Below, in pieces: positions 5,689 to 48,983 of a DNA stretch of 64,000 nt. Origin of the DNA: a bacterium (GTDB taxonomy: Bacteria; Zhuqueibacterota; QNDG01; CAYUAG01); assembly GCA_046483025.1 (NCBI GenBank), contig JAWODZ010000126.1, forward strand, positions 11,981 to 75,980. Direction: 5' to 3'. Positions within the stretch are counted from its first letter, which is position 1, and every line of letters starts with the position of its first letter. Both the position numbers and the translations under genes were made by a program. The notes under the pieces are model-generated. The model searched no databases. It was not told where the DNA came from and worked only from the letters and a program-made list of their open reading frames with translations.

Positions 5689-5922
5689 GTCTTATTTTTT
5701 ATATTGAGGGGAGTATGAAAATTATCGGAGGTTATTTATGGCCACAGGATTAGGATTTTCCTGTGGAACTCAGAAACCCTCCCCCGAGATCCTGAAATGA
5801 ATTCAGGATGACAACCCCATTCTGTATTATATTGAATCTTATTTTAAATATGTCATGCTGAGCCTTGTGCTGAACTTGGTTCAGTATTGTTCCAGAATCT
5901 CATGCAGTAATTAATTAGCCAA

Positions 5923-5969
5923 CCTCCCGAAGGTTTTGAATCCTCTTCATTCAGGACAAGTTCTTCGGG
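5923..5969. repeat. REP-like hairpin element (family C), copy 1: CCTCCCGAAGG...CTTCGGG stem
   Basis: Near-identical copy at 19595-19648 (cctcctgaaggtttcgaatccttcatt..caggacaggctcttcagggggg). It sits in a 565-bp non-coding gap with three more perfect hairpins (ccacagg/cctgtgg, atcctgaa/ttcaggat, ctgaac/gttcag). Confidence 0.6.
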
Positions 5970-6182
5970 AAATGTTGCCTTAACCCTGGGGCTGACCAAA
6001 AAATCCAAAAATAATGAAAACACAAGATCACAAAATAAATATAAATAATATATTACATCTGTATCCTCATCTTTTACTCTGTGAATTCTGTGGTTATTTT
6101 TTTCTTTTTGGACCGATCCACCAGAAGGAGTGAAACAGAGTTTAACACTTTAATACGTTACCAAAGGAGTAAAATTGCCCAC

Positions 6183-6211
6183 TTGACTTTAATAATTCGA
6201 TTGATTATAAT
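6183..6211 (+). promoter_or_regulatory. consensus sigma70 promoter TTGACT-17-TATAAT
   Basis: ttgactttaataattcgattgattataat, 44 bp upstream of the ATG at 6255. It shares the GATTGATTATA(A/T)T -10 context with the lepA promoter. Confidence 0.55.
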
Positions 6212-6254
6212 AGATTAACATGTAAAATTTTAAAGAAAAGAAAGGATACATTCT

Positions 6255-12959: not shown

Positions 12960-14267
12960 ATGAAAACAAGACATACTTGCATTATTGGTGATTCAAGAAA
13001 AATGGATGATATTAAAGATTCTTCCGTCCATTTAGTTGTAACTTCACCTCCTTATTGGCAATTGAAAGATTATGGTTCTGATGAACAAATAGGTTATTTT
13101 GATTCATATGAGGATTACATAAATAATCTTAATTTAGTATGGTTGGAGTGTTTTCGTGTTTTACACCCAGGTTGTAGATTATTGGTAAATATTGGAGATC
13201 AATTTGCTCGGGCTGTATATTATGGACGTTATAAAATAATACCAATAAGAACTGAAATTATTAAATTTTGTGAAACTATTGGTTTCGATTATATGGGTGC
13301 AATAATTTGGCAGAAAAAGACTACGATGAATACAACTGGTGGCGCAACGGTAATGGGTTCTTATCCATATCCTAGAAATGGCATTATCGAAATTGATTAT
13401 GAATTTATTTTAATTTTTAAAAAATCTGGTAAAGCTCCAAAAGTAAGTAAAAAAATAAAGGAGAAATCAAAAATAACTAAGGAAAAATGGAGAAAATATT
13501 TTTTAGGACATTGGTATTTTAATGGTGTTCGACAAAATAATCATATTGCTATGTTTCCCTTAGAATTACCTAAAAGAGCTATTGAAATGTTTACTTTTGT
13601 AGGTGATACAGTTTTAGACCCTTTTTTAGGGAGTGGAACTACATCCTTAGCAGCAATAAAGACAAATCGGAATTCTATTGGATATGAACTTAATGAGGAG
13701 TTTCTTCCTATTATTAAAGAAAAACTTAATGTAAATGAAAAGACTTTTTTTGATGATCATGATTTTGTTTTAAAACATCAAGATTATTTAAATATCAATT
13801 GGAAAAAAGAAATTCAGAAATTAAAATATATTTTTAATGATCCAATTAAGTTTAATAAAAAAATCGACCCAAATAAAATGAAATTTGGATCCAAAATTAA
13901 TATTTCTGATGGTATTAGCGGTGCAAAACGTGAAGAATATTTTTATGTAAAAAAAATTATCAAACCAAATTTGATAAAACTTTCAAATAATTTAATAATC
14001 AAATTAATTGGGGTTAAACCGTTTGAAAAGAAACAAAAAGATGCAATAAAATTTCTTGAGAATAAAATATTAAAACGACCGATTTTTTTAAAGTATGATA
14101 AAATGAAATATGATAAAGAAAATAATTTAATGGCATATGTATATATGAAAAATCGGACTTTCATTAATGCCCATTTAATAAAGAATCAATTATGTGGATT
14201 AGATGATAAATATGATTTTAAATATAAACAAAAATTTGAAACATTTATTAAAGGGGAATATAGATGA
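12960..14267 (+). CDS. beta-class N4/N6 DNA methyltransferase (SPPY then FxGxG order) with a C-terminal SNase-like extension
   Basis: Motif IV VVTSPPYW precedes motif I DPFLGSGTT. Residues about 300-435 are extra and resemble the staphylococcal nuclease fold: IKLIGVKPFE versus FRLLLVDTPE, and NLMAYVYMKNRTFINAHLIKNQLC versus [22 protein letters not shown]. Catalytic Arg/Asp positions are substituted. Lies in an AT-rich (about 27% GC) patch. Confidence 0.8.
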   Translation: MKTRHTCIIGDSRKMDDIKDSSVHLVVTSPPYWQLKDYGSDEQIGYFDSYEDYINNLNLVWLECFRVLHPGCRLLVNIGDQFARAVYYGRYKIIPIRTEIIKFCETIGFDYMGAIIWQKKTTMNTTGGATVMGSYPYPRNGIIEIDYEFILIFKKSGKAPKVSKKIKEKSKITKEKWRKYFLGHWYFNGVRQNNHIAMFPLELPKRAIEMFTFVGDTVLDPFLGSGTTSLAAIKTNRNSIGYELNEEFLPIIKEKLNVNEKTFFDDHDFVLKHQDYLNINWKKEIQKLKYIFNDPIKFNKKIDPNKMKFGSKINISDGISGAKREEYFYVKKIIKPNLIKLSNNLIIKLIGVKPFEKKQKDAIKFLENKILKRPIFLKYDKMKYDKENNLMAYVYMKNRTFINAHLIKNQLCGLDDKYDFKYKQKFETFIKGEYR

Positions 14268-14854
14268 AAACACGTGTTAAAATTAAAAATTCTGAAATTA
14301 AAGAATTACTAGGTACTAAACCAATTGAATTCCCAAAATATTCAACACAAATTATTAATTTAGCAAATCAGAATGCTCAAGGTACTAGACCTCCTGTTGT
14401 TGGTCAAATGAGTGAATTAATTCAAGAATTTACAGGGAAATCTATTTCAGAATGGGAGAAATGGTATTTAGCTAGGCATCCAGATGCTATTGATAAAGCT
14501 ACTGAAAAGATATCTGAAATGGTTGAGAAATTTTGAAATGTAATAAATGAAATTGATCGTAATATGATTGAAGATTGGGTAAAAGATTTAGTAATTATAA
14601 AAACTTTTATAGGATTAAAATTTCAAGAAGCAATTTTAAAGAAAACAGCGAATTTATTAAATACTTCATACCGTTTATCTGACTCTTTAGACGAATCTAA
14701 GGGGATCGATGGATATATAAATGATATTCCAATAAGTATCAAACCTGAAACATATAAAACTAAGAAGAGTCTCCAGGAAAAAATTGAAGTAAAATTTATA
14801 TATTATAAGAAAGTAAAAGATGGAATAAATATTGATTTAGAGGAAATAGTATAA
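14264..14854 (+). pseudogene. MTase-coupled partner ORF (candidate cognate restriction endonuclease) interrupted by a single in-frame TGA at 14534-14536
   Basis: Track ORFs 14264-14536 and 14564-14854 are in the same frame, separated only by one TGA and 9 sense codons. The ATGA overlap with the MTase stop implies translational coupling. A D...SIK segment (GIDGYINDIPISIK) is a possible PD-(D/E)xK-like motif. TGA is a genuine stop elsewhere in the window. Confidence 0.5.
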
Positions 14855-16604: not shown

Positions 16605-16695
16605 ATGTGGAAGAGGGACAAAGGAAAGAGATGAAGGAGAATGGAGGAAGGAGAAGTGAATATGGAGAATGGAAAATGGCGAAAATCCTCCTGTT

Positions 16696-16719
16696 TCCAT
16701 TTTCCCGTTTCCGTTTTCC
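16696..16719. repeat. dispersed repeat family B (TCCATTTTCCCGTTTCCGTTTTCC), copy 1
   Basis: Near-identical 24-mer at 58877-58899. Here it is the pyrimidine arm of a long purine/pyrimidine hairpin spanning 16607-16722. Confidence 0.55.
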
Positions 16720-16792: not shown

Positions 16793-18598
16793 ATGGGACA
16801 GACAATGATAGAGAAGATTTTTACCAATCACAGCAGTAAAAAGATTACTGCCGGGGATATTGCAGAAATCAGCATAGATGCCCGTATTGCCAGGGATTTT
16901 GGCGGGGCAAATGTAGTAAAGAATATTCAGTCCCATAATCTTGCAATTGATGATCCTCAAAAAACCTTTTTTACCTTCGACTGTAATCCGGGAGGATCTG
17001 ATCAGCAATATGCAGAGAATCAGCACATCTGCCGTCAGTTTTCCCGGGAACGGGGAATCAAGGTGTATGATATCCAGTCAGGGATCGGTACTCATATTGC
17101 CATTGATGAGGGTCTGGTCCGACCAGGGGGCACGTTGGTATCCACAGATTCTCATGCCAATATTTTAGGATCAATCGGTGCATTTGGACAGGGTATGGGA
17201 GATCGGGACATTGCAGCGGTCTGGTCGGAAGGGAAAATTTGGTTTAAAACTCCGGAAACGGTAAAATTACTTTTTCATGGTACTCCACCAGATGAAATTT
17301 GTGCCAAGGATATAGTGCTGTTTTTATTGAAAAATCTGGGAGCTGCAGGATTATTAGGAAAAGCTGCGGAGTTGGAAGGTGACTATATCCAAACGCTCAG
17401 TCTAAATTCCCGCATAACCATTTCATCCATGGCTACTGAAATGGGTGGTATCATCGCTCTTTTTGCCCCCAATAAGGATGTCCTAGACCATTTTAAGGAA
17501 GCTACTGGAGAGGAGATAGAGCCAGTATACGCAGACAAGGATGCTCGATATGTTGCGGTGAAGGAATGTGATTTAAGTAAGATGGAACCTCTGACTTCCC
17601 TGCCCGGCCATCCGGAGGATGTGGTCAAGGTTACCGACCTGAAAGAAGTCAAAATTGATTCAGCCTTCATCGGATCCTGTACTAATGGACGATTATCAGA
17701 TATGCAAGCAGCTGCTAATATATTAAAGAACCGTAAGGTAGCTCCCGGAGTGGTGTTAAAGATTGTTCCATCTACCCGAAAAATATGGGAGCAGTGTCTG
17801 GAACAGGGAATCATTGATATTTTCATGAAAGCAGGAGCCTTGGTGGGTAATGCCGGTTGTGCCGGCTGTGCCAAGGGACAGATCGGGCAGAACGGTCCGG
17901 GTGAGATCACCATAAGTACCGGGAACAGGAATTTTGCCGGAAAGCAAGGTAAAGGGGAGGTGTATCTGGCCTCCCCGGAAACAGTTGCTGCTTCTGCAGT
18001 CAGCGGAATCATTACCAGTAAAAATAATATTCTGTCAAGTCCGAAAAGATACAAAACGGCAGATTATACAAAATCTGAAAAGAAAGTATCTTCACCAAAA
18101 ACCGAGAAGAAACCGGTAGAAATCCAGGGGCGGGTTTGGGTAGTTGACCAGGATAACATTGATACGGATATGATTTTTCACAATCGTTATCTTACCATAA
18201 CCGATGTTGACGAAATGGGGCAGTATACTTTTGATAATCTCAAAGGCTGGGAGGATTTTTCCGATAAAGCTGAAAAAGGTGACATCATTGCGACCGGATC
18301 CAATTTCGGAGCCGGTTCTTCCCGACAGCAGGCTGTGGATTGTTTTAAAAGCCTGGGAATACAGGCCATAATTGCAAAATCATTCGGAGCAATTTATGAG
18401 AGAAACGGCGTCAATTCCGGTTTTCCATTGATCAGTGGTGATTTGATTTCGTCGGGTATAGAAAGTGGTGAAGAAATAAAAGTGAATTTCAAGACCGGTG
18501 AAATTACCCGGTTAAAAACGGGTGAGACCATTCAGGCACAGCCCTTTTCTGACGTGCAGATGGACATTTATCAGAAGGGGGATCTGTTGAGGAAGTAA
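16793..18598 (+). CDS. aconitase-family dehydratase: fused large (LeuC-like) plus small (LeuD-like) subunits, 3-isopropylmalate/homoaconitate dehydratase type
   Basis: 601 aa. Residues 1-420 are LeuC/HACN-like with the Fe-S ligands ...GSCTNGR... and ..NAGCAGCAKG... Residues about 440-600 are LeuD-like (GSNFGAGSSRQQA). The unfused paralog pair lies at 19927-21677. Confidence 0.8.
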   Translation: MGQTMIEKIFTNHSSKKITAGDIAEISIDARIARDFGGANVVKNIQSHNLAIDDPQKTFFTFDCNPGGSDQQYAENQHICRQFSRERGIKVYDIQSGIGTHIAIDEGLVRPGGTLVSTDSHANILGSIGAFGQGMGDRDIAAVWSEGKIWFKTPETVKLLFHGTPPDEICAKDIVLFLLKNLGAAGLLGKAAELEGDYIQTLSLNSRITISSMATEMGGIIALFAPNKDVLDHFKEATGEEIEPVYADKDARYVAVKECDLSKMEPLTSLPGHPEDVVKVTDLKEVKIDSAFIGSCTNGRLSDMQAAANILKNRKVAPGVVLKIVPSTRKIWEQCLEQGIIDIFMKAGALVGNAGCAGCAKGQIGQNGPGEITISTGNRNFAGKQGKGEVYLASPETVAASAVSGIITSKNNILSSPKRYKTADYTKSEKKVSSPKTEKKPVEIQGRVWVVDQDNIDTDMIFHNRYLTITDVDEMGQYTFDNLKGWEDFSDKAEKGDIIATGSNFGAGSSRQQAVDCFKSLGIQAIIAKSFGAIYERNGVNSGFPLISGDLISSGIESGEEIKVNFKTGEITRLKTGETIQAQPFSDVQMDIYQKGDLLRK

Positions 18599-18798
18599 GG
18601 GGGTGTACTTATAGCCACGGATTTACACGGATAGACATGGATTTAGGTTAGTTAATAATTCTTGAAAAAAAATACCCATGGCAAAATTACCCATTTCCCT
18701 CCCTTGAAGGGAGGGAATAAAGGGAGGGTGAGATCGGAGCAGTCACTCTCCCCGAAAGAGTAGTTACCCTTCTTTCAGAAGGTTAGCTTCTGAATTGT
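18599..18798. repeat. about 200-bp dispersed intergenic repeat (family A), copy 1
   Basis: About 90% identical to 19645-19841. It contains three tandem CACGGATnnn units and a perfect hairpin CCCTCCC-ttgaa-GGGAGGG at 18697-18715. Confidence 0.75.
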
Positions 18799-18804
18799 GC
18801 ACCA

Positions 18805-18842
18805 GGTGGACTCCATCTCAGAGATGGAGTCCACCTTTGTGG
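18805..18842 (+). terminator. candidate intrinsic terminator (13-bp stem GGTGGACTCCATC / GATGGAGTCCACC, 5-nt loop, followed by TTTGTGG)
   Basis: Perfect inverted repeat unique to copy 1 of repeat A, downstream of the fused leuCD gene. The T-tract is weak. Confidence 0.45.
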
Positions 18843-18939
18843 TATATTTAGAAATCTGCTTGATTTATTTGAATTATTTCTATATATTAAAGTTGAACTT
18901 GAAGTTTAACTCTAATATGAAAATGAAAAGGAGCATACA

Positions 18940-19173
18940 TTGAAAAAAATTTCTATGTTACAATTGCGGAAAAATTCAAAACAAATAATCCAATGGGCCC
19001 GGCAGGGGAAAAAAATGATTTTAACCTATAGGGGAAATCCTGTTTTTCGTATTGAACCTATACAGGAAAATTCACCGGATGAAAACGATTTATTTTATAG
19101 TATAGATAAGCTTGCTGTGGATGAAGGGCAAAATATAACCAACCAGAAAATGGATACAATCATTTATGAATAA
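18940..19173 (+). CDS. type II antitoxin, Phd/YefM-like
   Basis: 77 aa. TTG start with RBS AAAGGAG 7 nt upstream. Overlaps the downstream PIN toxin by 8 nt (ATGAATAA). Confidence 0.65.
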   Translation: MKKISMLQLRKNSKQIIQWARQGKKMILTYRGNPVFRIEPIQENSPDENDLFYSIDKLAVDEGQNITNQKMDTIIYE

Positions 19174-19579
19174 AAATATATTTATTGATACCAGCGGTTA
19201 TTATGCTTTACTTATAAATCAGGATAATGCCCATAGAAAAGCAGTAGATATTTTACATGAAGCAGCTGAGGAGAAAATTCAATTTATAACTTCAGATTAT
19301 ATTCTTGATGAGATTGCTACCTTACTTCAATTTCGAGGAGTCGGGCACTTACTTCCTGAATTTTTTAAAAGAGTTTTCAACTCTCAGGCGTGTAGAATTG
19401 AATGGATGGACGAAGAACTGTTTCAGCAAACTAAATTATTTTTTTTCAAAAATAGTGATCATAAATATTCATTCACGGATTGTTTTAGTTTTATATTGAT
19501 GCAAAGAAACGGATTGGAAAAAGCATTGACCAAAGATCATCATTTCCGGGAAGCTGGATTTATTTCTCTTTTGAGTTAA
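19166..19579 (+). CDS. vapC: type II toxin VapC (PIN domain ribonuclease)
   Basis: 137 aa. N-terminal IFIDTSGYYALL with Asp7, and later D/E acidic residues typical of the PIN fold. Confidence 0.75.
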   Translation: MNKNIFIDTSGYYALLINQDNAHRKAVDILHEAAEEKIQFITSDYILDEIATLLQFRGVGHLLPEFFKRVFNSQACRIEWMDEELFQQTKLFFFKNSDHKYSFTDCFSFILMQRNGLEKALTKDHHFREAGFISLLS

Positions 19580-19594
19580 TTTTCAGTGCAAAAA

Positions 19595-19648
19595 CCTCCT
19601 GAAGGTTTCGAATCCTTCATTTCATTCAGGACAGGCTCTTCAGGGGGG
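19595..19648. repeat. REP-like hairpin element (family C), copy 2, directly abutting repeat A copy 2
   Basis: cctcctgaaggtttcgaatccttcatttcattcaggacaggctcttcagggggg versus the copy at 5923-5969. Confidence 0.6.
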
Positions 19649-19841
19649 TGTACTTTTAGCCACGGATTTACACGGATAGACACGGATTTGGGTTGGTAAA
19701 TAACTCTTGAAAAAATTATTCATTGCAAATCACCCATTTCCCTCCCTCGAAGGGAGGAAATAAAGGGAGGGTGAGATCTGAGCAGTCACTCTCCCCGAAA
19801 GTGAAGCTACCCTTCTCTCATAAGGTTAGCTTCTGAATTGT
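19645..19841. repeat. about 200-bp dispersed intergenic repeat (family A), copy 2
   Basis: Aligned with 18599-18798 over its whole length: same CACGGAT triplet and same CCCTCCC..GGGAGG hairpin. Confidence 0.75.
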
Positions 19842-19926
19842 CCACCTAAACTTAAAAAAAATTTATAAAAATTGCTGAAAAATTTGTATCTTTATGATAA
19901 AAGGTTATTAATTAAAAAAGGCATAT

Positions 19927-21198
19927 ATGATGGGAAAAACATTTATTGAAAAAATGCTTGCCAAAAAATCCGGTAAAGAATCTGTAGAGGTTGGAGAAAT
20001 AGTAACAGTGAAACCTGATCATCTTTTAACTCATGATAATACCTCGGCTATAATTTCCAAGATCAAACCGGAATTAAAAAAATATGGAGTAGTTGATCCT
20101 GAATTTCCGGTCATTGTTCTTGATCATGTCATTCCGGCTGCCAGTGAAAAGAATGCATCCGGTCATAAAAAAATACGCGAGTTTGTAAAAGAACATTCCC
20201 TGATAAATTTTTTTGATATTGGAGAAGGAATCTGTCACCAGGTAGTGTATGAAAAGGGACTGGCTTTACCGGGAATGCTGGTGGTTGGAAGTGATTCCCA
20301 CACCTGTTCTTATGGTGCAGTGGGAGCCATGTCAATCGGAATTGACAGAACCGAAGCAGCAAGCTTACTGCTTACCGGTGAAATGTGGCTAAAGGTGGTT
20401 CCAACTATCAAGGTAACTGTTAAGGGTACACTGCAGCCCGGTGTGTCTGCCAAAGATGTCATCCTATATTTTATTGGTAGAATAGGTGCAGATGGTGCTA
20501 CCTACTGTGCAGTAGAATTTCACGGAGAAGTAGAGAATCTCAGCATGGATGAGCGCTTTACCATTGCCAATATGGGAATTGAAATGGGAGCCAAGATAGC
20601 AGTTTTTCCGGTGGATACTCTAACCAGAGAGTTTTTATCTTCGATAGGTATTAAGTCCGGTAGTTACAAGGAAGTTTGGGCTGATAAAGATGCTGAGTAT
20701 ATGGAGGAGCTAACCATTAATCTAAATGAGATCACGCCGGTGATTGCCAAACCGCATACGGTTGACAATGTAGTTAAGATCAGTGAAGTTAAGGGAACAT
20801 CCATTGATCAGGGATTGATCGGGACCTGTACCAATGGCAGATTAAGTGATTTCAGAGAAGCTGCAGAAATTCTTAAGGGGAAAAAGATTGCTAAAAATTT
20901 CCGGCTTTTAATTCTTCCGGCTTCCAGAAATATTTATCGACAGTTAGTGAAAGAGGGATTAATGGATACTCTGGTGGAATCAGGGGGAGTTATACTGCCC
21001 CCGGGTTGCGGTCCCTGTCTGGGGGCGCACCAGGGAGCTCTGGCTCCGAAAGAGACATGTCTGAGTACGGCAAACCGGAATTTCAAAGGGCGTATGGGTT
21101 GCAAGGAAGCAGAAATCTATCTGGGAAGTGCTCAAACAGTCGCAGCATCTGCTCTGTATGGTAAAATAACTGATCCCAGAAAGGAGATTAAAAAATGA
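19927..21198 (+). CDS. leuC: 3-isopropylmalate/homoaconitate dehydratase large subunit (archaeal-type LeuC)
   Basis: 423 aa. Motifs ..GSDSHT.., GTCTNGR and PGCGPCLG. Confidence 0.85.
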   Translation: MMGKTFIEKMLAKKSGKESVEVGEIVTVKPDHLLTHDNTSAIISKIKPELKKYGVVDPEFPVIVLDHVIPAASEKNASGHKKIREFVKEHSLINFFDIGEGICHQVVYEKGLALPGMLVVGSDSHTCSYGAVGAMSIGIDRTEAASLLLTGEMWLKVVPTIKVTVKGTLQPGVSAKDVILYFIGRIGADGATYCAVEFHGEVENLSMDERFTIANMGIEMGAKIAVFPVDTLTREFLSSIGIKSGSYKEVWADKDAEYMEELTINLNEITPVIAKPHTVDNVVKISEVKGTSIDQGLIGTCTNGRLSDFREAAEILKGKKIAKNFRLLILPASRNIYRQLVKEGLMDTLVESGGVILPPGCGPCLGAHQGALAPKETCLSTANRNFKGRMGCKEAEIYLGSAQTVAASALYGKITDPRKEIKK

Positions 21199-21677
21199 AG
21201 GTATGGAAATATAGTGATGATATTAATACTGATATGCTTTTCCCGGGTAAATATACCTATACCTGTTCCACACCCGAGGAAATCAAACCTCATTTACTGG
21301 AAGATTTGGATCCTGATTTCAACAAGCAGGTCCAACCAGGGGATGTTATTTTTGCCGGAAAGAATTTTGGCTGCGGCAGTTCACGAGAACAGCCGGCTGT
21401 AGGATTAAAACATGTGGGGATAGCAGCAATAGTAGCAAAAAGTTTTTCCAGAATTTTTTACCGTGCCTCTTTAAATCAGGGATTACTACTTATAGAATCT
21501 CCTGAAAGTGTGGAAGCTTATACTTCCGGGGATCAGGTAGAGATAAAAGCCAGGGAAGGGAAAATATTGGTTGGGGATAAAGAATTTAGCTTTCCCCGAC
21601 TCCCTGATTCTATTATCGGAATAATGGAAGCAGGTGGATTACTGGAATATACTCGGAGGAGGTTGGGAAAAAGTTAG
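21195..21677 (+). CDS. leuD: 3-isopropylmalate/homoaconitate dehydratase small subunit (LeuD)
   Basis: 160 aa. GKNFGCGSSREQ motif. Its ATGA overlaps the leuC stop. Confidence 0.85.
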   Translation: MKVWKYSDDINTDMLFPGKYTYTCSTPEEIKPHLLEDLDPDFNKQVQPGDVIFAGKNFGCGSSREQPAVGLKHVGIAAIVAKSFSRIFYRASLNQGLLLIESPESVEAYTSGDQVEIKAREGKILVGDKEFSFPRLPDSIIGIMEAGGLLEYTRRRLGKS

Positions 21678-21785
21678 GTTCGGTTAAGGTTCAGGGTTCA
21701 AAGGTTCAGAGTTCAGGGTTGGAAGGTTAATAATCAACATATATCCTGAATTTTAAACCCGGAACTCAGAACTCTGAAATTTGAA
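21677..21785. repeat. short tandem repeat (GGTTCAG-type heptamers) plus complementary CTGAA-rich arm forming an imperfect long hairpin
   Basis: aggttcggttaaggttcagggttcaaaggttcagagttcagggttgg, then ...cctgaattttaaacccggaactcagaactctgaaatttgaa. TTCAGAGTTC pairs with GAACTCTGAA. Confidence 0.6.
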
Positions 21786-21842: not shown

Positions 21843-23138
21843 GTGATGATGCGATTATATGAGAATGAATCAAAGAAAATTTTCACTCGTCAAGGAATTC
21901 CGGTTCCCGGTCAGCTGGGAATAATATGCAGATCCAAGGAAGTTAAAAAAGTTTTAAAAGAGAGTGACTTCCCGGTGATGTTGAAATCTTTAATACTGGT
22001 AGGAGGAAGAGGAAAAGCAGGAGGAATAAAAAAGGCAAACAATGTTGCAGAAGCAGAAAGGAATGCCAAGAAGATTTTAAAAATGAGAATCAAGGGATAT
22101 CCGGTTGAAATGCTCATGCTGGAAAAGGCGGTTGTAGAAAACAGTGCAGTATATCTGGGAGTAACCATGAATCCTGAAACCTATAACAATATCATTATTG
22201 TAAGTCCCTCCGGAGGAGTAGATATTGAAACTGTAGCCAATGAGACTCCGGAGTTAATTTTCAGGTTGGAGTTGAAAGAAAATGAAAAGATCCTGCCGGA
22301 TGCTGCTGCTCAAAATGCTTCCGATTTTTTGACTGAGCATCTGGATACAGATGCTCAGTTCAATAATGAATTAAAAGACATTATTTCCATACTCTATAAT
22401 ACTTATCAAAAGCTGGACTGTAAAACTGCAGAGATTAATCCTTTGATTATCACTCCTGAAGGTCCGGTGGCAGCGGATGCCAAAATTGTGCTGGATGATA
22501 ATGCTCTGTTCAGACAAAAAGAAGTTTTCGGATTGCTGGGCATAAAAGAAGTCAGACATGATGTTTCCGAACCTACCAGAAATGAAGTCAGGGCTAGAGA
22601 GGCCGGATTTCCCTATGTTGATTTGCTTTCTGAAGATCACAAAAAAGACAATGATAAACTCTATGTTGGTCTGGTACCCGGGGGTGCCGGATATGGAATA
22701 TTTTCCATTGATGAAGTAGCCAATGTAGGAGAACGATTCTTTGACGGTCGAGTGATTCCGGTAAATTTTATGGATTCCGGGGGAGGTCCCTCCCTGGAGA
22801 AAGTTGCTGAAATGTTTCATTTGTTAATGGATTATAAGATTGTGGATTTAATTATTACTTCCAGATTCGGGGGTATTTCTTCCTGTGATACTTTTATCAA
22901 AGGATTGATTCAAGCAATTCTGGACCGGTTCAGATCAGGCAGGAGAATGATTCCTGTGTATGGCCGCATGGTGGGAACAGATCTTCCCAGTGCACGGGAA
23001 TATTTAGATAAAGCCAAGCAAAGATATTCAGAAGAATTAAAGGATATGGATATAACCGTTGGTAATAAAAAGATAATGGCAGAAGTTATCCGAGAAGGTA
23101 TTGAAAAAGCATTTAATAATAAGGAAAGGAAATCATGA
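21843..23138 (+). CDS. aclB: ATP-citrate lyase small subunit (ATP-grasp, SucC-like)
   Basis: 431 aa ATP-grasp fold (..VMLKSLILVGGRGKAGG..). Translationally coupled to the downstream large subunit (ATGA overlap at 23135). Confidence 0.75.
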   Translation: MMMRLYENESKKIFTRQGIPVPGQLGIICRSKEVKKVLKESDFPVMLKSLILVGGRGKAGGIKKANNVAEAERNAKKILKMRIKGYPVEMLMLEKAVVENSAVYLGVTMNPETYNNIIIVSPSGGVDIETVANETPELIFRLELKENEKILPDAAAQNASDFLTEHLDTDAQFNNELKDIISILYNTYQKLDCKTAEINPLIITPEGPVAADAKIVLDDNALFRQKEVFGLLGIKEVRHDVSEPTRNEVRAREAGFPYVDLLSEDHKKDNDKLYVGLVPGGAGYGIFSIDEVANVGERFFDGRVIPVNFMDSGGGPSLEKVAEMFHLLMDYKIVDLIITSRFGGISSCDTFIKGLIQAILDRFRSGRRMIPVYGRMVGTDLPSAREYLDKAKQRYSEELKDMDITVGNKKIMAEVIREGIEKAFNNKERKS

Positions 23139-25279
23139 AGCAAAAAATAAATGCTACTGAAGGAATGCTCTATTATATTGTAGAAAAGATACGGCCGAAA
23201 CTGGCTGAAAAGATAAAAAAGACCAATGAGCTGGAAACCATGATTATTGGATTGGGGGGACAGGGTACTAAACATGCAGGATTGATGAAAGAATTTGGAA
23301 CAAATGTAACTGCAGGGGTTGCTCCGGGAAAGGGGGGAAGAAGGGTACATGAAACTATTCCGGTCTATAATACAATTCAAGAGACTTTGGAAAACCACCC
23401 GAATATTGTAGCAGCCAGTATCTGGAGACATTATTCTACTGCAAAAAATTCTGCTGTTGAAGCTATTGAAGCAGGGATACCGCTGATTGTTTTAATTTCT
23501 GAGTTTATTCCTCTGAAAGATGTACGAGATATTCTCATTACAGCCAGAAAACATAATACTCTCTTAATCGGCGGCAATACTCCGGGTTTGATATTTCCTC
23601 CGGAAAGGATTAAAATCGGAATGCTTCCTGATGTTTTTCAGCCCCAGGTGAAAAAATCCGGTCAGTTGGGATCAAAAGGGGTTACCATTATTTCCAGAAG
23701 CGGAGCAATTCTGTATCATATGTCGGATGCAATGTCCAGTGTGGGGATAGCCCAGAATGCAGTTATCGGAGTGGGAGGAGATGGAGCTATTGGTTCAACT
23801 TTTAAAGATTTGGTACCTCTGGCCATGGAATATAAGAATACAGATGCAGTGGTGGTGGCAGGTGAGATCGGAGGATGTCAGGAAGAAGTTCTGGCCCGGG
23901 ATATGAAAGAGAATCCGGAGAAATATCCCAAACCCTTAATAGCTTTAATTTCCGGGGCCCATGCTCCGGAAGGAAAAACCATGGGACATGCAGGTGCAAT
24001 AGTAACTCCGGGAGGAGAAACCGGAACTTTCGCTTCCAAAAAGAAAGCTTTAGAAGAAGCGGGTGTGATAGTTGTTAACAGTCAATATGATTTAATTACA
24101 GCTGTTCAGAAAGCACTTCAGGATAAACAATATTTCGATCCGAAAGAATATTATAAAAAAATGAAAGAAAAATGGGAGGCACCTCCTCCTGAGCCCAGCT
24201 GGGGAACTATGATCACAGAGGTTAAGCCTAATAATTTGATAATCAGAGGATACGGACTACAGGATATTATAGAAAGTACTTCTCTTCTTTCTGCTGCTAG
24301 CTTAATTCTTCAAGGCGAGATTTTAGATGAACGATACGGCAGAGCGTTGAACAAACTTGCCTGTGATGCTGCCAAAAAGAGAGCACCTGAAATCCCTCAT
24401 AATCCGGATGAAGATATCTCCAAGAGTTTACAGAAGTATTTATTAAACGATGAAGAGCTGGTAAGTTTTGAGCCTCAGGGTGAAAACAGACCGGTTGAAA
24501 AATCCATCTATTGTCTGGGACGTTTTTGCTCCTATTTAGCTGATTCCCTGGGTAATCAAAAAGTCTTGATGGAAAAAAGTGATAGAGAGAATTTTTCTGA
24601 TTTGATTTATAACGCCTTAACCGGGGAATCGCAAAATATAGAAAAATCAAAAATGATAGAAGCAATGATAACGGCCTGCATTGATCATGGTGTAACTCCA
24701 CCTTCTGCTCAGGCTACACTTATTGCTGCTTCAGTGAGGGCAGATTATGAAGTTGCAGTTGCGCAAGGTGTGGGAGCTATTACTGATGTTCATGGTGGTG
24801 CCGGCGAAAAAGCAGCCGAATTTTTTATCAAATGTGCCGCCTTGGCTAAAGAGCGGAAAATTTCCCTGAAAGATGCAACCTATACTATGATGCAACAGTT
24901 CATTACTTCAGGTATCAGAATTGAAGGAATGGGCCACCGCATTCACACCCAGGATCCCAGAAGAGATGTTCTGTGGTCAATAGCAGAGAAAAATAAAATT
25001 TCAGGAGACTGTATAAAAATATCAAAGATCGCAAGTGGGGTTTTACAGCAGATAAGGGGGATTAATCTGCCGGTAAATGTGGATGGAGTAATTGGAGCAA
25101 TTATAGCGGATATGGGACTTGATCCCAAATGTGCGAAAGCAATTTTTATTTTTGGTCGGGTCTGTGGGCTGTCTGCGCATTATTTTGAAGAAATCATTAC
25201 ACAGTCACCTATGCGCAGAATTAATTTTTCTCAAGCTGTATACAAGGGAAGTAAAGAGAGAAAGTTTCCTAAAACCTGA
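23135..25279 (+). CDS. aclA: ATP-citrate lyase large subunit (CoA-binding SucD-like domain plus citrate-synthase-like domain)
   Basis: N-terminal CoA-binding GLGGQGTKH. Phosphohistidine loop MGHAGAIV. C-terminal citrate synthase-type GMGHRIH motif. Confidence 0.75.
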   Translation: MKQKINATEGMLYYIVEKIRPKLAEKIKKTNELETMIIGLGGQGTKHAGLMKEFGTNVTAGVAPGKGGRRVHETIPVYNTIQETLENHPNIVAASIWRHYSTAKNSAVEAIEAGIPLIVLISEFIPLKDVRDILITARKHNTLLIGGNTPGLIFPPERIKIGMLPDVFQPQVKKSGQLGSKGVTIISRSGAILYHMSDAMSSVGIAQNAVIGVGGDGAIGSTFKDLVPLAMEYKNTDAVVVAGEIGGCQEEVLARDMKENPEKYPKPLIALISGAHAPEGKTMGHAGAIVTPGGETGTFASKKKALEEAGVIVVNSQYDLITAVQKALQDKQYFDPKEYYKKMKEKWEAPPPEPSWGTMITEVKPNNLIIRGYGLQDIIESTSLLSAASLILQGEILDERYGRALNKLACDAAKKRAPEIPHNPDEDISKSLQKYLLNDEELVSFEPQGENRPVEKSIYCLGRFCSYLADSLGNQKVLMEKSDRENFSDLIYNALTGESQNIEKSKMIEAMITACIDHGVTPPSAQATLIAASVRADYEVAVAQGVGAITDVHGGAGEKAAEFFIKCAALAKERKISLKDATYTMMQQFITSGIRIEGMGHRIHTQDPRRDVLWSIAEKNKISGDCIKISKIASGVLQQIRGINLPVNVDGVIGAIIADMGLDPKCAKAIFIFGRVCGLSAHYFEEIITQSPMRRINFSQAVYKGSKERKFPKT

Positions 25280-46880: not shown

Positions 46881-47084
46881 ATGTTCGGAGGAATGATTAT
46901 TATCTGGATTTTTATAGTTGTAGGAGTTATCTGGTTGATCAGATATTTGACTGAACAAAAAAATATGAAAAATAATGAAATGGAAAAAGAAACCAGCGCC
47001 CTGGATATATTGAAAATACAATATGCCAAGGGTGAGATCAACAGAGAAGAGTTCAAGAAACGTAAAAAAGATTTAGAAAATTAA
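46881..47084 (+). CDS. SHOCT-domain small membrane protein (copy 1)
   Basis: One TM, then ALDILKIQYAKGEINREEFKKRKKDL, the SHOCT signature. Confidence 0.7.
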   Translation: MFGGMIIIWIFIVVGVIWLIRYLTEQKNMKNNEMEKETSALDILKIQYAKGEINREEFKKRKKDLEN

Positions 47085-47088
47085 AAAA

Positions 47089-47340
47089 TTGAAAGGAGTG
47101 AAAATTATGCATGACTGGGGAATGATGAACTGGGGCTGGGGCGGTATGATTGTTCAATTGCTTTTCTGGATAGTTATTATTGTTGCTATTATCTGGGCAA
47201 TCAGGCATTTTACCGGACCTGGTCGAAGTGATGGATCTGCTTCCGGCAGTGAATCGGCTCTGGATGTACTGAAAAAACGTTACGCCAGCGGAGAGATCGA
47301 CAAACAAGAATTTGAAGAAAAGAAAAGGGATATTTTATGA
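47089..47340 (+). CDS. SHOCT-domain small membrane protein (copy 2)
   Basis: W/G-rich N-terminus, one TM, ALDVLKKRYASGEIDKQEFEEKKRDIL. An alternative start at 47107 is possible. Confidence 0.7.
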   Translation: MKGVKIMHDWGMMNWGWGGMIVQLLFWIVIIVAIIWAIRHFTGPGRSDGSASGSESALDVLKKRYASGEIDKQEFEEKKRDIL

Positions 47341-47732
47341 AAAAAACTTCATATGCATTCACCAAAACAGTAAATAGAGATTTTGACCAAACCATTCAGA
47401 AACTTACGGAAGAATTGAAAAAGGAGGGTTTTGGTATTCTGACTGAGATTGATGTTCAGGCTACTCTTAAGAAAAAACTGGATGTTGATTTCAGGCCTTA
47501 CAAGATTCTGGGTGCTTGTAATCCTTCCTTTGCCTATAAAGCCTTACAGGCGGAAGAACAGATCGCATTAATGCTGCCCTGTAATGTTATTGTGTATGTG
47601 AATGAAGAGAAAGAAACCGTAGTCGCAGCTATTGATCCGGAGGCCTCAATGACGGCAATTGATAATCCTGAATTACAGGGAATCAATAAAGAAGTTCAGA
47701 CCAAGCTCAGATCAGTGATTGAGCGATGTTGA
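47337..47732 (+). CDS. DUF302 domain protein
   Basis: 131 aa. GFGILTEIDVQATLKKKLDV...YKILGACNP is the DUF302 core. Confidence 0.7.
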   Translation: MKKTSYAFTKTVNRDFDQTIQKLTEELKKEGFGILTEIDVQATLKKKLDVDFRPYKILGACNPSFAYKALQAEEQIALMLPCNVIVYVNEEKETVVAAIDPEASMTAIDNPELQGINKEVQTKLRSVIERC

Positions 47733-47779
47733 GAGAATAAGAAAAGATTAAAAAATTTTTGTAAGGAGGTGAACGAATT

Positions 47780-48016
47780 ATGCACGGATGGGAGTTTATG
47801 CACTGGGGCTGGTTTGGTTTTATTGTGCAGATTATTTTCTGGGTAGCAATCATACTGCTTATAGTATGGGTGGCAAAGAAAGTCACAGAGTCAGGTTCCG
47901 GAGATCGATCTTCTTCTGCGGGAGAATCAGCCCTGGACATTTTGAAAAAAAGATATGCCAAGGGAGAGATTGACAAAGATGAGTATGAAAAAAAGAAAAA
48001 GGACTTGACTGCATGA
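47780..48016 (+). CDS. SHOCT-domain small membrane protein (copy 3)
   Basis: MHGWEFMHWGW.. TM, then ALDILKKRYAKGEIDKDEYEKKKKDL. Confidence 0.7.
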   Translation: MHGWEFMHWGWFGFIVQIIFWVAIILLIVWVAKKVTESGSGDRSSSAGESALDILKKRYAKGEIDKDEYEKKKKDLTA

Positions 48017-48781: not shown

Positions 48782-48983
48782 AATTCGGTTAGAGTTGGAG
48801 GTTGTTATATAAGTTTACAAAAATGAAACCACAGGATACACAGAGAAAATAAAGAAGTTAAAAAGTATATGAATTAGTAATCCCCTTATTTTATTTTTTG
48901 CTCTGTGTATTCTTTATGGTTTTTTGTCATCCTTTAGTTTGTAAATCAATGTTAATGTAAAATTCGATAATAAAATACTGAAT

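Follow-up and report, generated by a model that had tools for sequence, protein, structure and literature searches.

The spacer between two sets of aconitase-family genes in the window (the whole stretch of 64,000 nucleotides of the source genome, W) contains a toxin-antitoxin (TA) operon, which is accessory DNA at this position. In the reading that we favor, to which we assign a probability of roughly 60%, a TA pair of the VapBC type resides as accessory DNA in a spacer that is hypervariable and rich in REP sequences, and the direct repeats on its two sides would be copies of a composite non-coding block that was duplicated and subjected to gene conversion, rather than of a transposable element. 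The locus is an ordinary accessory gene insertion; it is not a new mobile element and reveals no new mechanism.

Upstream of the operon lies a fused gene of the aconitase/IPM-dehydratase family (16793..18598, 601 aa), comprising both large and small subunit domains (Pfam Aconitase, 266 bits; Aconitase_C, 51 bits). Downstream are unfused aconitase-family genes for a large subunit (19927-21198, 423 aa) and a small subunit (21195-21677, 160 aa), followed by ATP-citrate-lyase-like genes. These aconitase-family genes are on the plus strand, as are the operon, repeats and hairpins described below. The earlier note had named the flanking loci leuCD, a label that proved too specific. Both the fused and the unfused sets pass NCBIfam models at the subfamily level only (NF001614 alone in the case of the fused gene), and every LeuC/LeuD equivalog cut-off was failed: scores were 184.7 and 238.1 against 560 for the LeuC equivalog TIGR00170, 323 and 445 against 611 for TIGR02083, and 48.8 against 116 for TIGR00171. 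Because of these failures and the ATP-citrate-lyase-like neighbors, the leuCD label is not established. The distal end of the spacer (19853..19926), just ahead of the next gene, is conserved and includes the 10-bp sequence TGTATCTTTA (19885-19894). It is 92% identical to the corresponding region of the relative L008, 100% identical over 35 nt to that of L010, and also present in L037.

The antitoxin (18940..19173, 77 aa) starts with TTG, with a GGAG 6 nt upstream, and the toxin (19166..19579, 137 aa) begins 8 nt before the end of the antitoxin gene; both reading frames are as the earlier note had described them. The toxin is a PIN-domain protein of the VapC type (PF01850, 34.6 bits over a cut-off of 23.6), in which D8, E49, D105 and D124 are invariant among 15 homologues. 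Its closest solved relative is VapC20 of Mycobacterium tuberculosis, which the profile of the toxin family matches with an E-value of 2.7e-24 (PDB 5wzf). The antitoxin itself remains below the cut-off of Pfam PhdYeFM_antitox (PF02604, 24.6 against 29.8 bits). We assigned it to the Phd/YefM family because a homologue in L015, with which it shares 44% identity along the entire protein, passes this cut-off with 31.4 bits. Searches of solved structures with the antitoxin, of NCBIfam models with both proteins, and an exact look-up of the PIN protein gave no match. The pair is intact and under selection, with dN/dS values of 0.12-0.27 for the antitoxin and 0.13-0.18 for the toxin. A type III (RNA-repeat) antitoxin was ruled out, there being no short tandem repeats upstream of the toxin.

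A promoter-like site, TTGATT-17-TATATT (18860-18888), precedes the operon, and its -10-like hexamer overlaps an imperfect palindrome, TTAAAGTTGAACTT-G-AAGTTTAACTCTAA (18887-18915). The palindrome is kept upstream of homologous TA pairs in L008, L038, L015 and L017 and is a likely candidate operator for autorepression. Taken together, the operon is predicted to be a chromosomal type II TA system of the VapBC kind. It shares with VapBC an overlapping two-gene organization with the antitoxin first, a PIN toxin with four conserved acidic residues and a promoter palindrome as candidate operator, and it differs from them in its Phd/YefM-like antitoxin, the usual VapB being of the AbrB/MazE or RHH type. 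By homology, the antitoxin would bind and neutralize the PIN RNase and repress its own operon at the palindrome overlapping the -10 region. Upon loss of the labile antitoxin, the toxin would cleave a specific RNA, probably the sarcin-ricin loop of 23S rRNA, as judged by homology to VapC20, an endonuclease acting on this loop (PDB 5wzf/5wz4).

The operon is flanked by two directly oriented copies of a non-coding block, R, of approximately 205 bp. Copy 1 (R_L, 18599..18803) starts right at the stop codon of the fused gene, and copy 2 (R_R, 19644..19846) follows the toxin gene. The earlier note had placed repeats of about 200 bp and about 90% identity at 18599-18798 and 19645-19841, which is right to within a few bases: the two copies form a single gapped BLAST alignment of 205 columns with 89.3% identity and two 1-nt gaps, containing ungapped segments of 72 nt (18599-18670/19644-19715, 92%) and 120 nt (18684-18803/19727-19846, 92%). 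We counted two words of the block, a 23-mer and a 41-mer, in the 64-kb window; each has exactly two occurrences, whereas shuffling predicts 0.00. From its 5' end, R_L comprises GGGGGT, a leftover of the 3' arm of a neighboring hairpin termed hp (18599-18604); three CACGGAT words (18612-18644); a hairpin formed by TTCCCTCCCT and AGGGAGGGAA (18695-18717); a second stem with GGGAGGG (18722-18752); and a conserved 3' double hairpin, the 3' module (18754-18803). No conserved open reading frame was found inside R.

The 5' part of the block (~18599-18720) is missing after the stop codon of the upstream gene in L036, the closest relative (90%), and this absence makes the 5' half separable, while the 3' module is kept in L036, L038 and L008. 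R is therefore a mosaic of separable REP-like hairpin modules and not an element in its own right. R_L is followed by a perfect hairpin, H (18804..18836), with a 16-bp stem, a 1-nt loop and a subsequent TTTGT, which resembles a terminator or a REP sequence. H appears to be the original 3' end of the ancestral repeat unit. In R_R the hairpins are weakened by substitutions and H has been deleted, with the exception of GTCCACCT (19840..19847), which equals the last 8 nt of H and is probably the scar of a deletion through GT(G/C)CACC microhomology. This difference between the flanks corrects the earlier note. In L008, on the other hand, H is found in both flanks, including the right-hand copy, with a compensatory A/T swap. 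In L023 and L031, H is found elsewhere as well, behind the ends of genes at other loci.

The second hairpin, hp (19593..19644, AACCTCCTGAAGG...CTTCAGGGGGG), is a REP-like compound structure that includes a predicted terminator-like stem (19600-19619) and whose 3' arm enters the first bases of R_R. The earlier note had correctly recognized a REP hairpin abutting copy 2. A second copy of hp lies at 5921-5971 of the window, and L008 has a version with a perfect stem at the equivalent place (2500-2532); hp is a real multi-copy REP-like element. We dropped the idea that hp is a relic of the 3' end of the upstream gene because of the independent copy at 5921. Short intergenic palindromes at several loci are thus a feature of the modules H and hp, but not of R as a whole.

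Comparison with related genomes revealed occupied, empty and otherwise filled versions of the spacer. A TA operon with flanking repeats was found at the same site in three lineages (W, L008/L009 and L038), each with repeats of its own. In L010, only 52 bp separate the two aconitase-family genes and the TA is absent. For the downstream genes, L010 is the sister of L008 (87-92% nucleotide identity, versus about 80% to W), and its junction consists of the left-hand and right-hand L008 sequences joined at the 10-bp TGTATCTTTA, outside the blocks, with no solo copy of R left. Furthermore, the relative L037 retains a promoter piece that is absent from L010. Given the junction, the sisterhood with L008 and this promoter piece, L010 represents a secondary loss of the whole unit. 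A dif/Xer-like site at TGTATC-TTTATGATAAAA was also weighed but rejected, since the would-be XerC arm differs between W and L010 and is not conserved.

Other relatives carry other contents at this site. The 69% relative L013/L014 has a spacer of 178/264 bp and no TA. In L037 (77% relative), a RAYT-like open reading frame flanked by three REP hairpins stands in place of the TA; this frame contains HNHYH and Y..NP motifs and matches PF01797 (Y1_Tnp) with an E-value of 3.5e-4 and a score of 21.1, below the cut-off of 23. L037 also displays a relic of the last 17 codons of the upstream gene, downstream of a hairpin module, which indicates that segmental duplication of the 3' end of this gene occurs at this site. 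PIN homologues with 57-65% identity sit at unrelated loci, and TA homologues found elsewhere have no flanking repeats. A search of plasmid DNA with the whole unit gave no match; at the protein level, only PIN homologues with 28-37% identity were found, on cyanobacterial and Salinibacter plasmids. With TA-less alleles in L010, L013/L014 and L037 and PIN homologues at unrelated loci, the TA is accessory DNA in this spacer, as the insertion described in the earlier note implied. Finally, L011 and L036 carry repeat-type modules after the upstream gene and no TA in their assembled part, and both contigs end inside the modules. The independent Logan contigs L001 and L036 break off at one and the same base within the 3' module, which would fit a multi-copy sequence.

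Under the favored reading of a duplicated block, R most likely began as the sequence 3' of the upstream gene, with H as its end, and after duplication it came to bracket the TA. The duplication would be older than the split of at least three lineages, and gene conversion, or else repeated exchange of modules, would have maintained the similarity of the two copies within each genome, in a spacer that keeps gaining and losing pieces through recombination at short repeats. Several comparisons speak for such concerted evolution. The two copies in W differ by about 10%, compared with a dS of 0.5-0.6 between the TA genes of W and L008. In the segment of the GGGAGGG stem, a single position out of 42 separates the two W copies, as against 6-7 for the orthologue in L036. 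The two copies of L008 share blocks of 39 nt and 34 nt that are 100% identical, located between stretches that cannot be aligned. The mosaic make-up of R is also seen across lineages, where the 3' module and H are orthologous and the interiors differ.

The dS of the TA genes (0.5-0.6) is lower than that of the flanking genes (1.15-1.41). This suggests that the cassette moved between lineages after their divergence, as simple vertical inheritance does not explain the difference. Such lateral movement is a point against the favored reading.

The strongest alternative, which we nevertheless regard as unlikely, is a recombination cassette, in which a single crossover with a resident R integrated a circle carrying the TA and one R, and the reverse crossover would excise it, leaving one copy behind. 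Its geometry fits the direct repeats found around the cargo in all three occupied lineages, and repeats of 205 bp with 90% identity suffice as a substrate for RecA. A TA dS 2-3 times below that of the flanking genes would be expected for lateral spread into the same site, and the modules of L011 and L036 could be solo alleles. However, both of these contigs end inside the modules and no complete solo-copy allele was seen. The sole complete TA-less allele from a close relative, that of L010, contains no R, and its junction is a 10-bp repeat that lies outside the blocks; the repeat-free TA homologues at other loci also speak against this model. In addition, the identities of the flanking genes are mosaic, such that ordinary allelic replacement through these genes can explain the lateral spread. 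Of the capture or mobilization through repeat recombination proposed in the earlier note, the accessory insertion holds, and capture or loss by recombination between R_L and R_R is possible. The same note had named, as what would refute its idea, a repeat confined to these two positions with a TA-containing synteny conserved across distant relatives. On this count the outcome was mixed: we found the repeat at two positions only, and the synteny of TA and repeats in W, L008/L009 and L038 but not in more distant relatives.

Quite unlikely, in our estimate, is that R or its modules are non-autonomous elements similar to MITEs or REPINs, mobilized in trans, a RAYT-type Y1 transposase being one possible agent, and that they entered each side of the TA in separate events, perhaps by homing to hairpins. 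The RAYT-like gene and REP hairpins in the same spacer of L037 make active REP mobilization in this clade plausible. The multi-copy nature of hp and H, the behavior of the 5' half as a separate indel of about 120 bp, contigs that break inside R, and the fact that the two flanks of each genome are closer to each other than to their orthologues are also consistent with this model. As in MITE- or IS-bounded units (TIMEs, MITE-flanked integrons), two non-coding copies of about 200 bp bracket cargo genes. Unlike such units, however, R has direct orientation and ragged, truncated ends. Its only terminal inverted repeats are an imperfect 7-nt pair, GGTGTAC/GTGCACC, and no target-site duplication was found, the flanks being GTAA...AGGT for copy 1 and TCAG...TAAA for copy 2. 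The left edge of R is the last 6 nt of hp and thus a truncation rather than the terminus of an element.

Searches for dispersed copies also weigh against mobility of the block. No further copy of whole R was found in the 64-kb window or in about 50 kb of DNA from the relatives, and a tblastn search of the window with the L037 protein gave no RAYT. Among 185,579 reference genomes, an exact 23-mer from the 5' arm alone gave 6 matches, none in an R-like context, and an exact scan of the JGI metagenomes with the single block-specific 20-mer AATAAAGGGAGGGTGAGATC gave 0 matches; diverged copies would escape both scans. Block patterns had 0 matches in viral contigs. The concatenated six-frame stop-free peptides of R, with which we sought copies mis-called as genes, scored nothing against a collection of 5.8 billion proteins. 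Given the lack of terminal inverted repeats and target duplications, the truncated left edge, the separable 5' half and the lack of a further copy in these searches, the site-targeting MITE-like element suggested in the earlier note was not borne out. A more specific version, to which we give only a slim chance, is that the hairpin modules, including the CACGGAT arm, are non-autonomous elements mobilized by RAYT, and that R, TA and R form a REP-bounded cassette shuttling VapBC between strains. If true, it would link REP mobilization to the spread of TA systems and imply an undescribed cross-phylum family of word-repeat hairpins.

A slimmer chance still falls to R being a functional structured RNA, either a stabilizer or terminator in the 3'-UTR or a small RNA running from a promoter-like site within R (TAGACA-16-AATAAT) to H, with both copies under selection. 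The region 18599-18840 is predicted to fold strongly (z = -5.5 on the plus strand and -6.6 on the minus strand), and the 3' module with H is 87-97% identical across lineages, compared with 84% for the TA coding sequence. One compensatory T-A to C-G change in the 3' stem accompanies the A/T swap in H (n=1 each), in a sequence set too small for covariation testing. On the other hand, Rfam gave nothing meaningful, either for the window at gathering thresholds or for 18550-19930 at E <= 5. L010 and L013 manage without R, L036 dispenses with the 5' half, and in copy 2 substitutions break the stems and H is lost.

The remaining alternative, an integron-type gene cassette with the repeats as attC sites, recalls the TA cassettes of chromosomal integrons, which have their own promoter and are flanked by direct repeats, but it is effectively refuted by the anatomy of R, which is 205 bp long as opposed to about 57-141 bp for attC, shows no RYYYAAC/GTTRRRY core pair when its sequence is read, occurs as two repeats only with no integrase evident nearby, and is a patchwork of modules that occur separately elsewhere. 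No tRNA genes were found.

A close parallel is ccdO157, a type II TA in the highly variable folA-apaH spacer of Escherichia coli, between metabolic genes (Mine et al. 2009, reviewed in PMC3184786). It is present, decayed or absent depending on the strain, and many strains have REP sequences in this spacer (PMC3184786). The present operon likewise lies in a variable, REP-bearing spacer between metabolic genes and varies in presence. It differs in being a Phd/PIN pair instead of CcdAB, and in being bracketed by direct repeats of about 200 bp that appear to evolve in concert, an arrangement undescribed for ccdO157. The hairpins H (33 nt) and hp (about 50 nt) resemble REP/BIME and REPIN/RAYT systems as short intergenic palindromes present at several loci and in mosaic arrays at gene ends, and L037 adds a RAYT-like gene with REP hairpins. 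In contrast to these systems, the whole 205-bp R is unseen elsewhere, the host is no proteobacterium but an uncultured bacterium of low GC content, and the L037 protein falls below the Y1_Tnp cut-off.

The locus offers a small, clean example of a chromosomal TA persisting as optional DNA in a spacer that is rich in hairpins and prone to recombination. Among related uncultured genomes, occupied, deleted and alternatively occupied alleles are all visible; the flanks show signs of evolving in concert, and the cassette of having spread laterally. A further addition is a VapC20-like family member, paired with a Phd-type antitoxin, in an uncultured lineage of low GC content. The sole point of potentially wider reach concerns the CACGGAT word hairpin, for whose identity across phyla we reached no explanation: over 23-35 nt, its arm is identical to intergenic inverted repeats in metagenome-assembled genomes of Nitrospirota, Acidobacteriota and Gallionella.

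The locus is a VapBC20-like toxin-antitoxin (TA) pair in a REP/BIME-like mosaic spacer, both of which are kinds already known. The closest precedent is ccdO157 of E. coli, a TA in the variable, REP-containing folA-apaH spacer (PMC3184786). A fused aconitase-family gene ends at 18598 and is followed by a non-coding block (18599-18803), which occurs again at 19644-19846 with the TA between the two copies; the repeats and ORFs described in the earlier note are confirmed. The repeat search aligned the copies in ungapped segments of 72 nt and 120 nt (92% identity each), and a single gapped alignment gave 89.3% identity over 205 columns. For both a 23-mer and a 41-mer of the block, the window has exactly two occurrences (0.00 expected from shuffles), and the window-wide repeat search found no third copy of the block.

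The ORFs between the copies encode proteins of 77 aa (18940-19173; TTG start, with GGAG 6 nt 5' of it) and 137 aa (19166-19579), overlapping by 8 nt. The larger is a PIN-domain protein (PF01850, 34.6 bits against a cut-off of 23.6), in which D8, E49, D105 and D124 do not vary when it is aligned with 14 homologues of identity down to 34%. The profile of this alignment matches M. tuberculosis VapC20, a 23S rRNA-specific endonuclease (E 2.7e-24), as well as VapC26 and an archaeal VapC. The smaller protein scored 24.6 bits against Pfam PhdYeFM, just under the cut-off of 29.8, and is 44% identical over its full length to a homologue scoring 31.4 bits, above that cut-off. Upstream, a promoter-like site (18860-18888) overlaps an imperfect 14-nt palindrome (18887-18915), which is kept upstream of homologous TA pairs in four contigs from other genomes (L008, L038, L015 and L017). 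The dN/dS of the TA between lineages is 0.12-0.27. The TA is an intact VapBC-type module under selection, and its toxicity, neutralisation and RNA target would be those expected from family knowledge.

The block is a mosaic of modules. It opens with six bases (GGGGGT) that close the 3' arm of hp, a compound hairpin in its own right. This hairpin stands complete before copy 2 (19593-19644), recurs at 5921-5971 and has a perfect stem in its L008 version. What looks like the left "end" of copy 1 is thus hp cut short at the stop codon and no element terminus. Three CACGGAT words at 10-nt spacing follow, then a pair of GGGAGGG-type hairpins, and last a 3' module in which two small stems overlap. 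L036, the closest relative (90% aa), has nothing between the stop codon and the second GGGAGGG stem, after which comes the 3' module; this makes the 5' half of the block (~120 bp) a separable piece. Copy 1 is followed by a perfect-stem hairpin, H (18804-18836), of which only the last 8 nt are left at copy 2; L008 has H on both sides. The window, L036, L038 and L008 have orthologous 3' modules and H hairpins (87-97% identity), with block interiors that vary by lineage. H shows one A/T swap and the 3' stem one T-A to C-G change, both compensatory. H was also found after gene ends at other loci, on contigs from the metagenomes that also gave L009 and L037. Downstream of a word hairpin, L037 carries a relic of the upstream gene's last 17 codons (SEVQMHIY...DLLRK*), indicating that segmental duplication of the upstream gene's 3' flank occurs at this site.

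The hp copy at 5921-5971 lies inside another long spacer (5689-6254), which has short modules in common with the L011 spacer (GGGGCTGAC.AAAAA). More intergenic inverted repeats, whose arms are tandem short words, a different word in each, were found at 16658-16718, 21705-21778 and 48833-48913. This word-built hairpin style seems general in the source genome and its relatives.

The proposal of a MITE-like element is not supported: the block lacks inverted termini, no target is duplicated around it, and its left edge is a truncated hp arm. Neither a conserved ORF nor an Rfam match was found in the block. The other part of that interpretation, an accessory cassette in a recombination-prone site, is supported, and capture or excision of the TA via the two block copies is possible but was not observed. 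A reference-genome scan, in a collection that does not include the source MAG, found a 23-mer of the CACGGAT arm in six MAGs of other phyla; in all six it makes up an arm of an inverted triple-word repeat between genes, and nothing there resembles the remainder of the block. A block-specific 20-mer gave 0 matches in a metagenome scan, block patterns gave 0 in three viral scans, and a peptide search with the six-frame peptides gave no match. The main sign of a multi-copy block is a hint from L001 and L036, Logan contigs from different sequencing runs or samples and different strains, whose ends lie no more than one base apart in the 3' module (...AGAAGGTTAGC/T; L001 at window 18787). As the window copies have no 31-mer in common, copy 2 alone fails to explain this break.

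The 35-nt TTTTAGCCACGGATTTACACGGATAGACACGGATT of copy 2 (19655-19689; also 18612-18644) is 100% identical in a Nitrospiraceae MAG, and 23-30 nt of it recur unchanged in MAGs of Acidobacteriota, Gallionella and Nitrospirota (loci L002-L007). There it forms an arm of an intergenic inverted repeat with three CACGGAT words at 10-nt spacing; the words are conserved and the inter-word spacers are not complementary.

Contigs of related genomes were reached via homologues of the fused gene. L008/L009 (fused gene 85% aa identical to the window's) have the TA with their own direct flanking repeats, consisting of a 39-nt block and the 34-nt H (both 100% identical) and a 74% block, ~1 kb apart. L038, found via the PIN protein, has a TA 84% identical in nucleotides to the window's and 89% to that of L008, with a left block that is complete and ends in H, and the beginning of a right block. 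In L010 (82% aa) the two genes are just 52 bp apart, and L013/L014 (69% aa) have spacers of 178 and 264 bp with other word repeats and without the TA. L037 (77% aa) carries a 189-aa ORF with a weak match to IS200-like Y1 transposases (PF01797, E 3.5e-4, 21.1 bits, under the cut-off of 23; HNHYH and Y..NP motifs); this RAYT-like ORF lies amid three copies of the REP hairpin GTGAAACATCAGGGATGTTTCAC (L037 2436-3600). PIN homologues of 57-65% identity occupy unrelated loci without flanking repeats, next to thyX (L015) or a polysaccharide-biosynthesis gene (L017), and distant ones are found on cyanobacterial and Salinibacter plasmids. Just 5' of the fused gene, L008 has a group II intron domain V/VI piece (12-132; Rfam RF00029, 52 bits, gathering score 40), where other relatives have an HD-domain gene.

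Nucleotide identity across the four genes downstream is 87-92% between L008 and L010 and only ~78-82% between either of them and the window, so that the TA is present in the window and L008 and absent from L008's sister. At the L010 junction, sequence of the left flank of L008 runs to TGTATCTTTA and is continued from TGTATCTTTA on by that of the right flank of L008, and promoter-proximal sequence missing from L010 is kept in L037. Taken together, these sequence comparisons would most simply mean that L010 secondarily lost the whole unit, between direct repeats of 10 bp. Upstream identities conflict with the downstream ones (fused gene 90% nt for L008-L011 and 82% for L008-L010; HD gene 91% between the window and L010), which places recombination breakpoints at or near the spacer.

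The flank duplication is common to all three TA-bearing lineages, yet the window copies differ by just ~10%, against a TA synonymous divergence of 0.48-0.61 between the window and L008. In the GGGAGGG stem segment the window copies differ at 1/42 positions and the L036 orthologue at 6-7. Gene conversion between the block copies would be the simplest reading. The dS of the flanking genes is 1.15-1.41, two to three times that of the TA, which is suggestive only, the TA genes being short and AT-rich, of an exchange of the cassette between lineages after their divergence, probably by homologous recombination via the flanks.

The flanking genes had been named leuCD, which is an over-call. The fused gene (601 aa) and the unfused pair (423 + 160 aa) belong to the aconitase/3-isopropylmalate dehydratase family, passing only subfamily models and failing all LeuC/LeuD equivalog cut-offs; the next two genes resemble the two subunits of ATP-citrate lyase or citryl-CoA synthetase/lyase, and the five-gene cluster is kept in relatives. 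For these genes a citrate/aconitate role is no less likely, and the neighbourhood suggests a citrate-cleavage/reductive-TCA cluster instead of leucine biosynthesis. The ATP-citrate-lyase-type pair directly 3' of the aconitase-family genes (21843-25279) comprises a succinyl-CoA-synthetase-beta-like ATP-grasp gene and a 714-aa fusion of SCS-alpha-like and citryl-CoA-lyase/citrate-synthase-like parts.

Elsewhere in the window, three ~77-nt coding repeats (46998-48006) are 69-75% identical and each encode ...L.K.YA.GEI..EEF..KK.D; they resemble a short C-terminal motif that is repeated in neighbouring ORFs. Finally, a type II R-M island at 12960-14854 has decayed: an N6/N4 DNA methylase (435 aa, SNase-like tail) is followed by a MjaI-type restriction endonuclease in two separate ORFs, which cover Pfam positions 1-63 and 75-164; L010 and L011 have umuD/umuC-like genes in its place.
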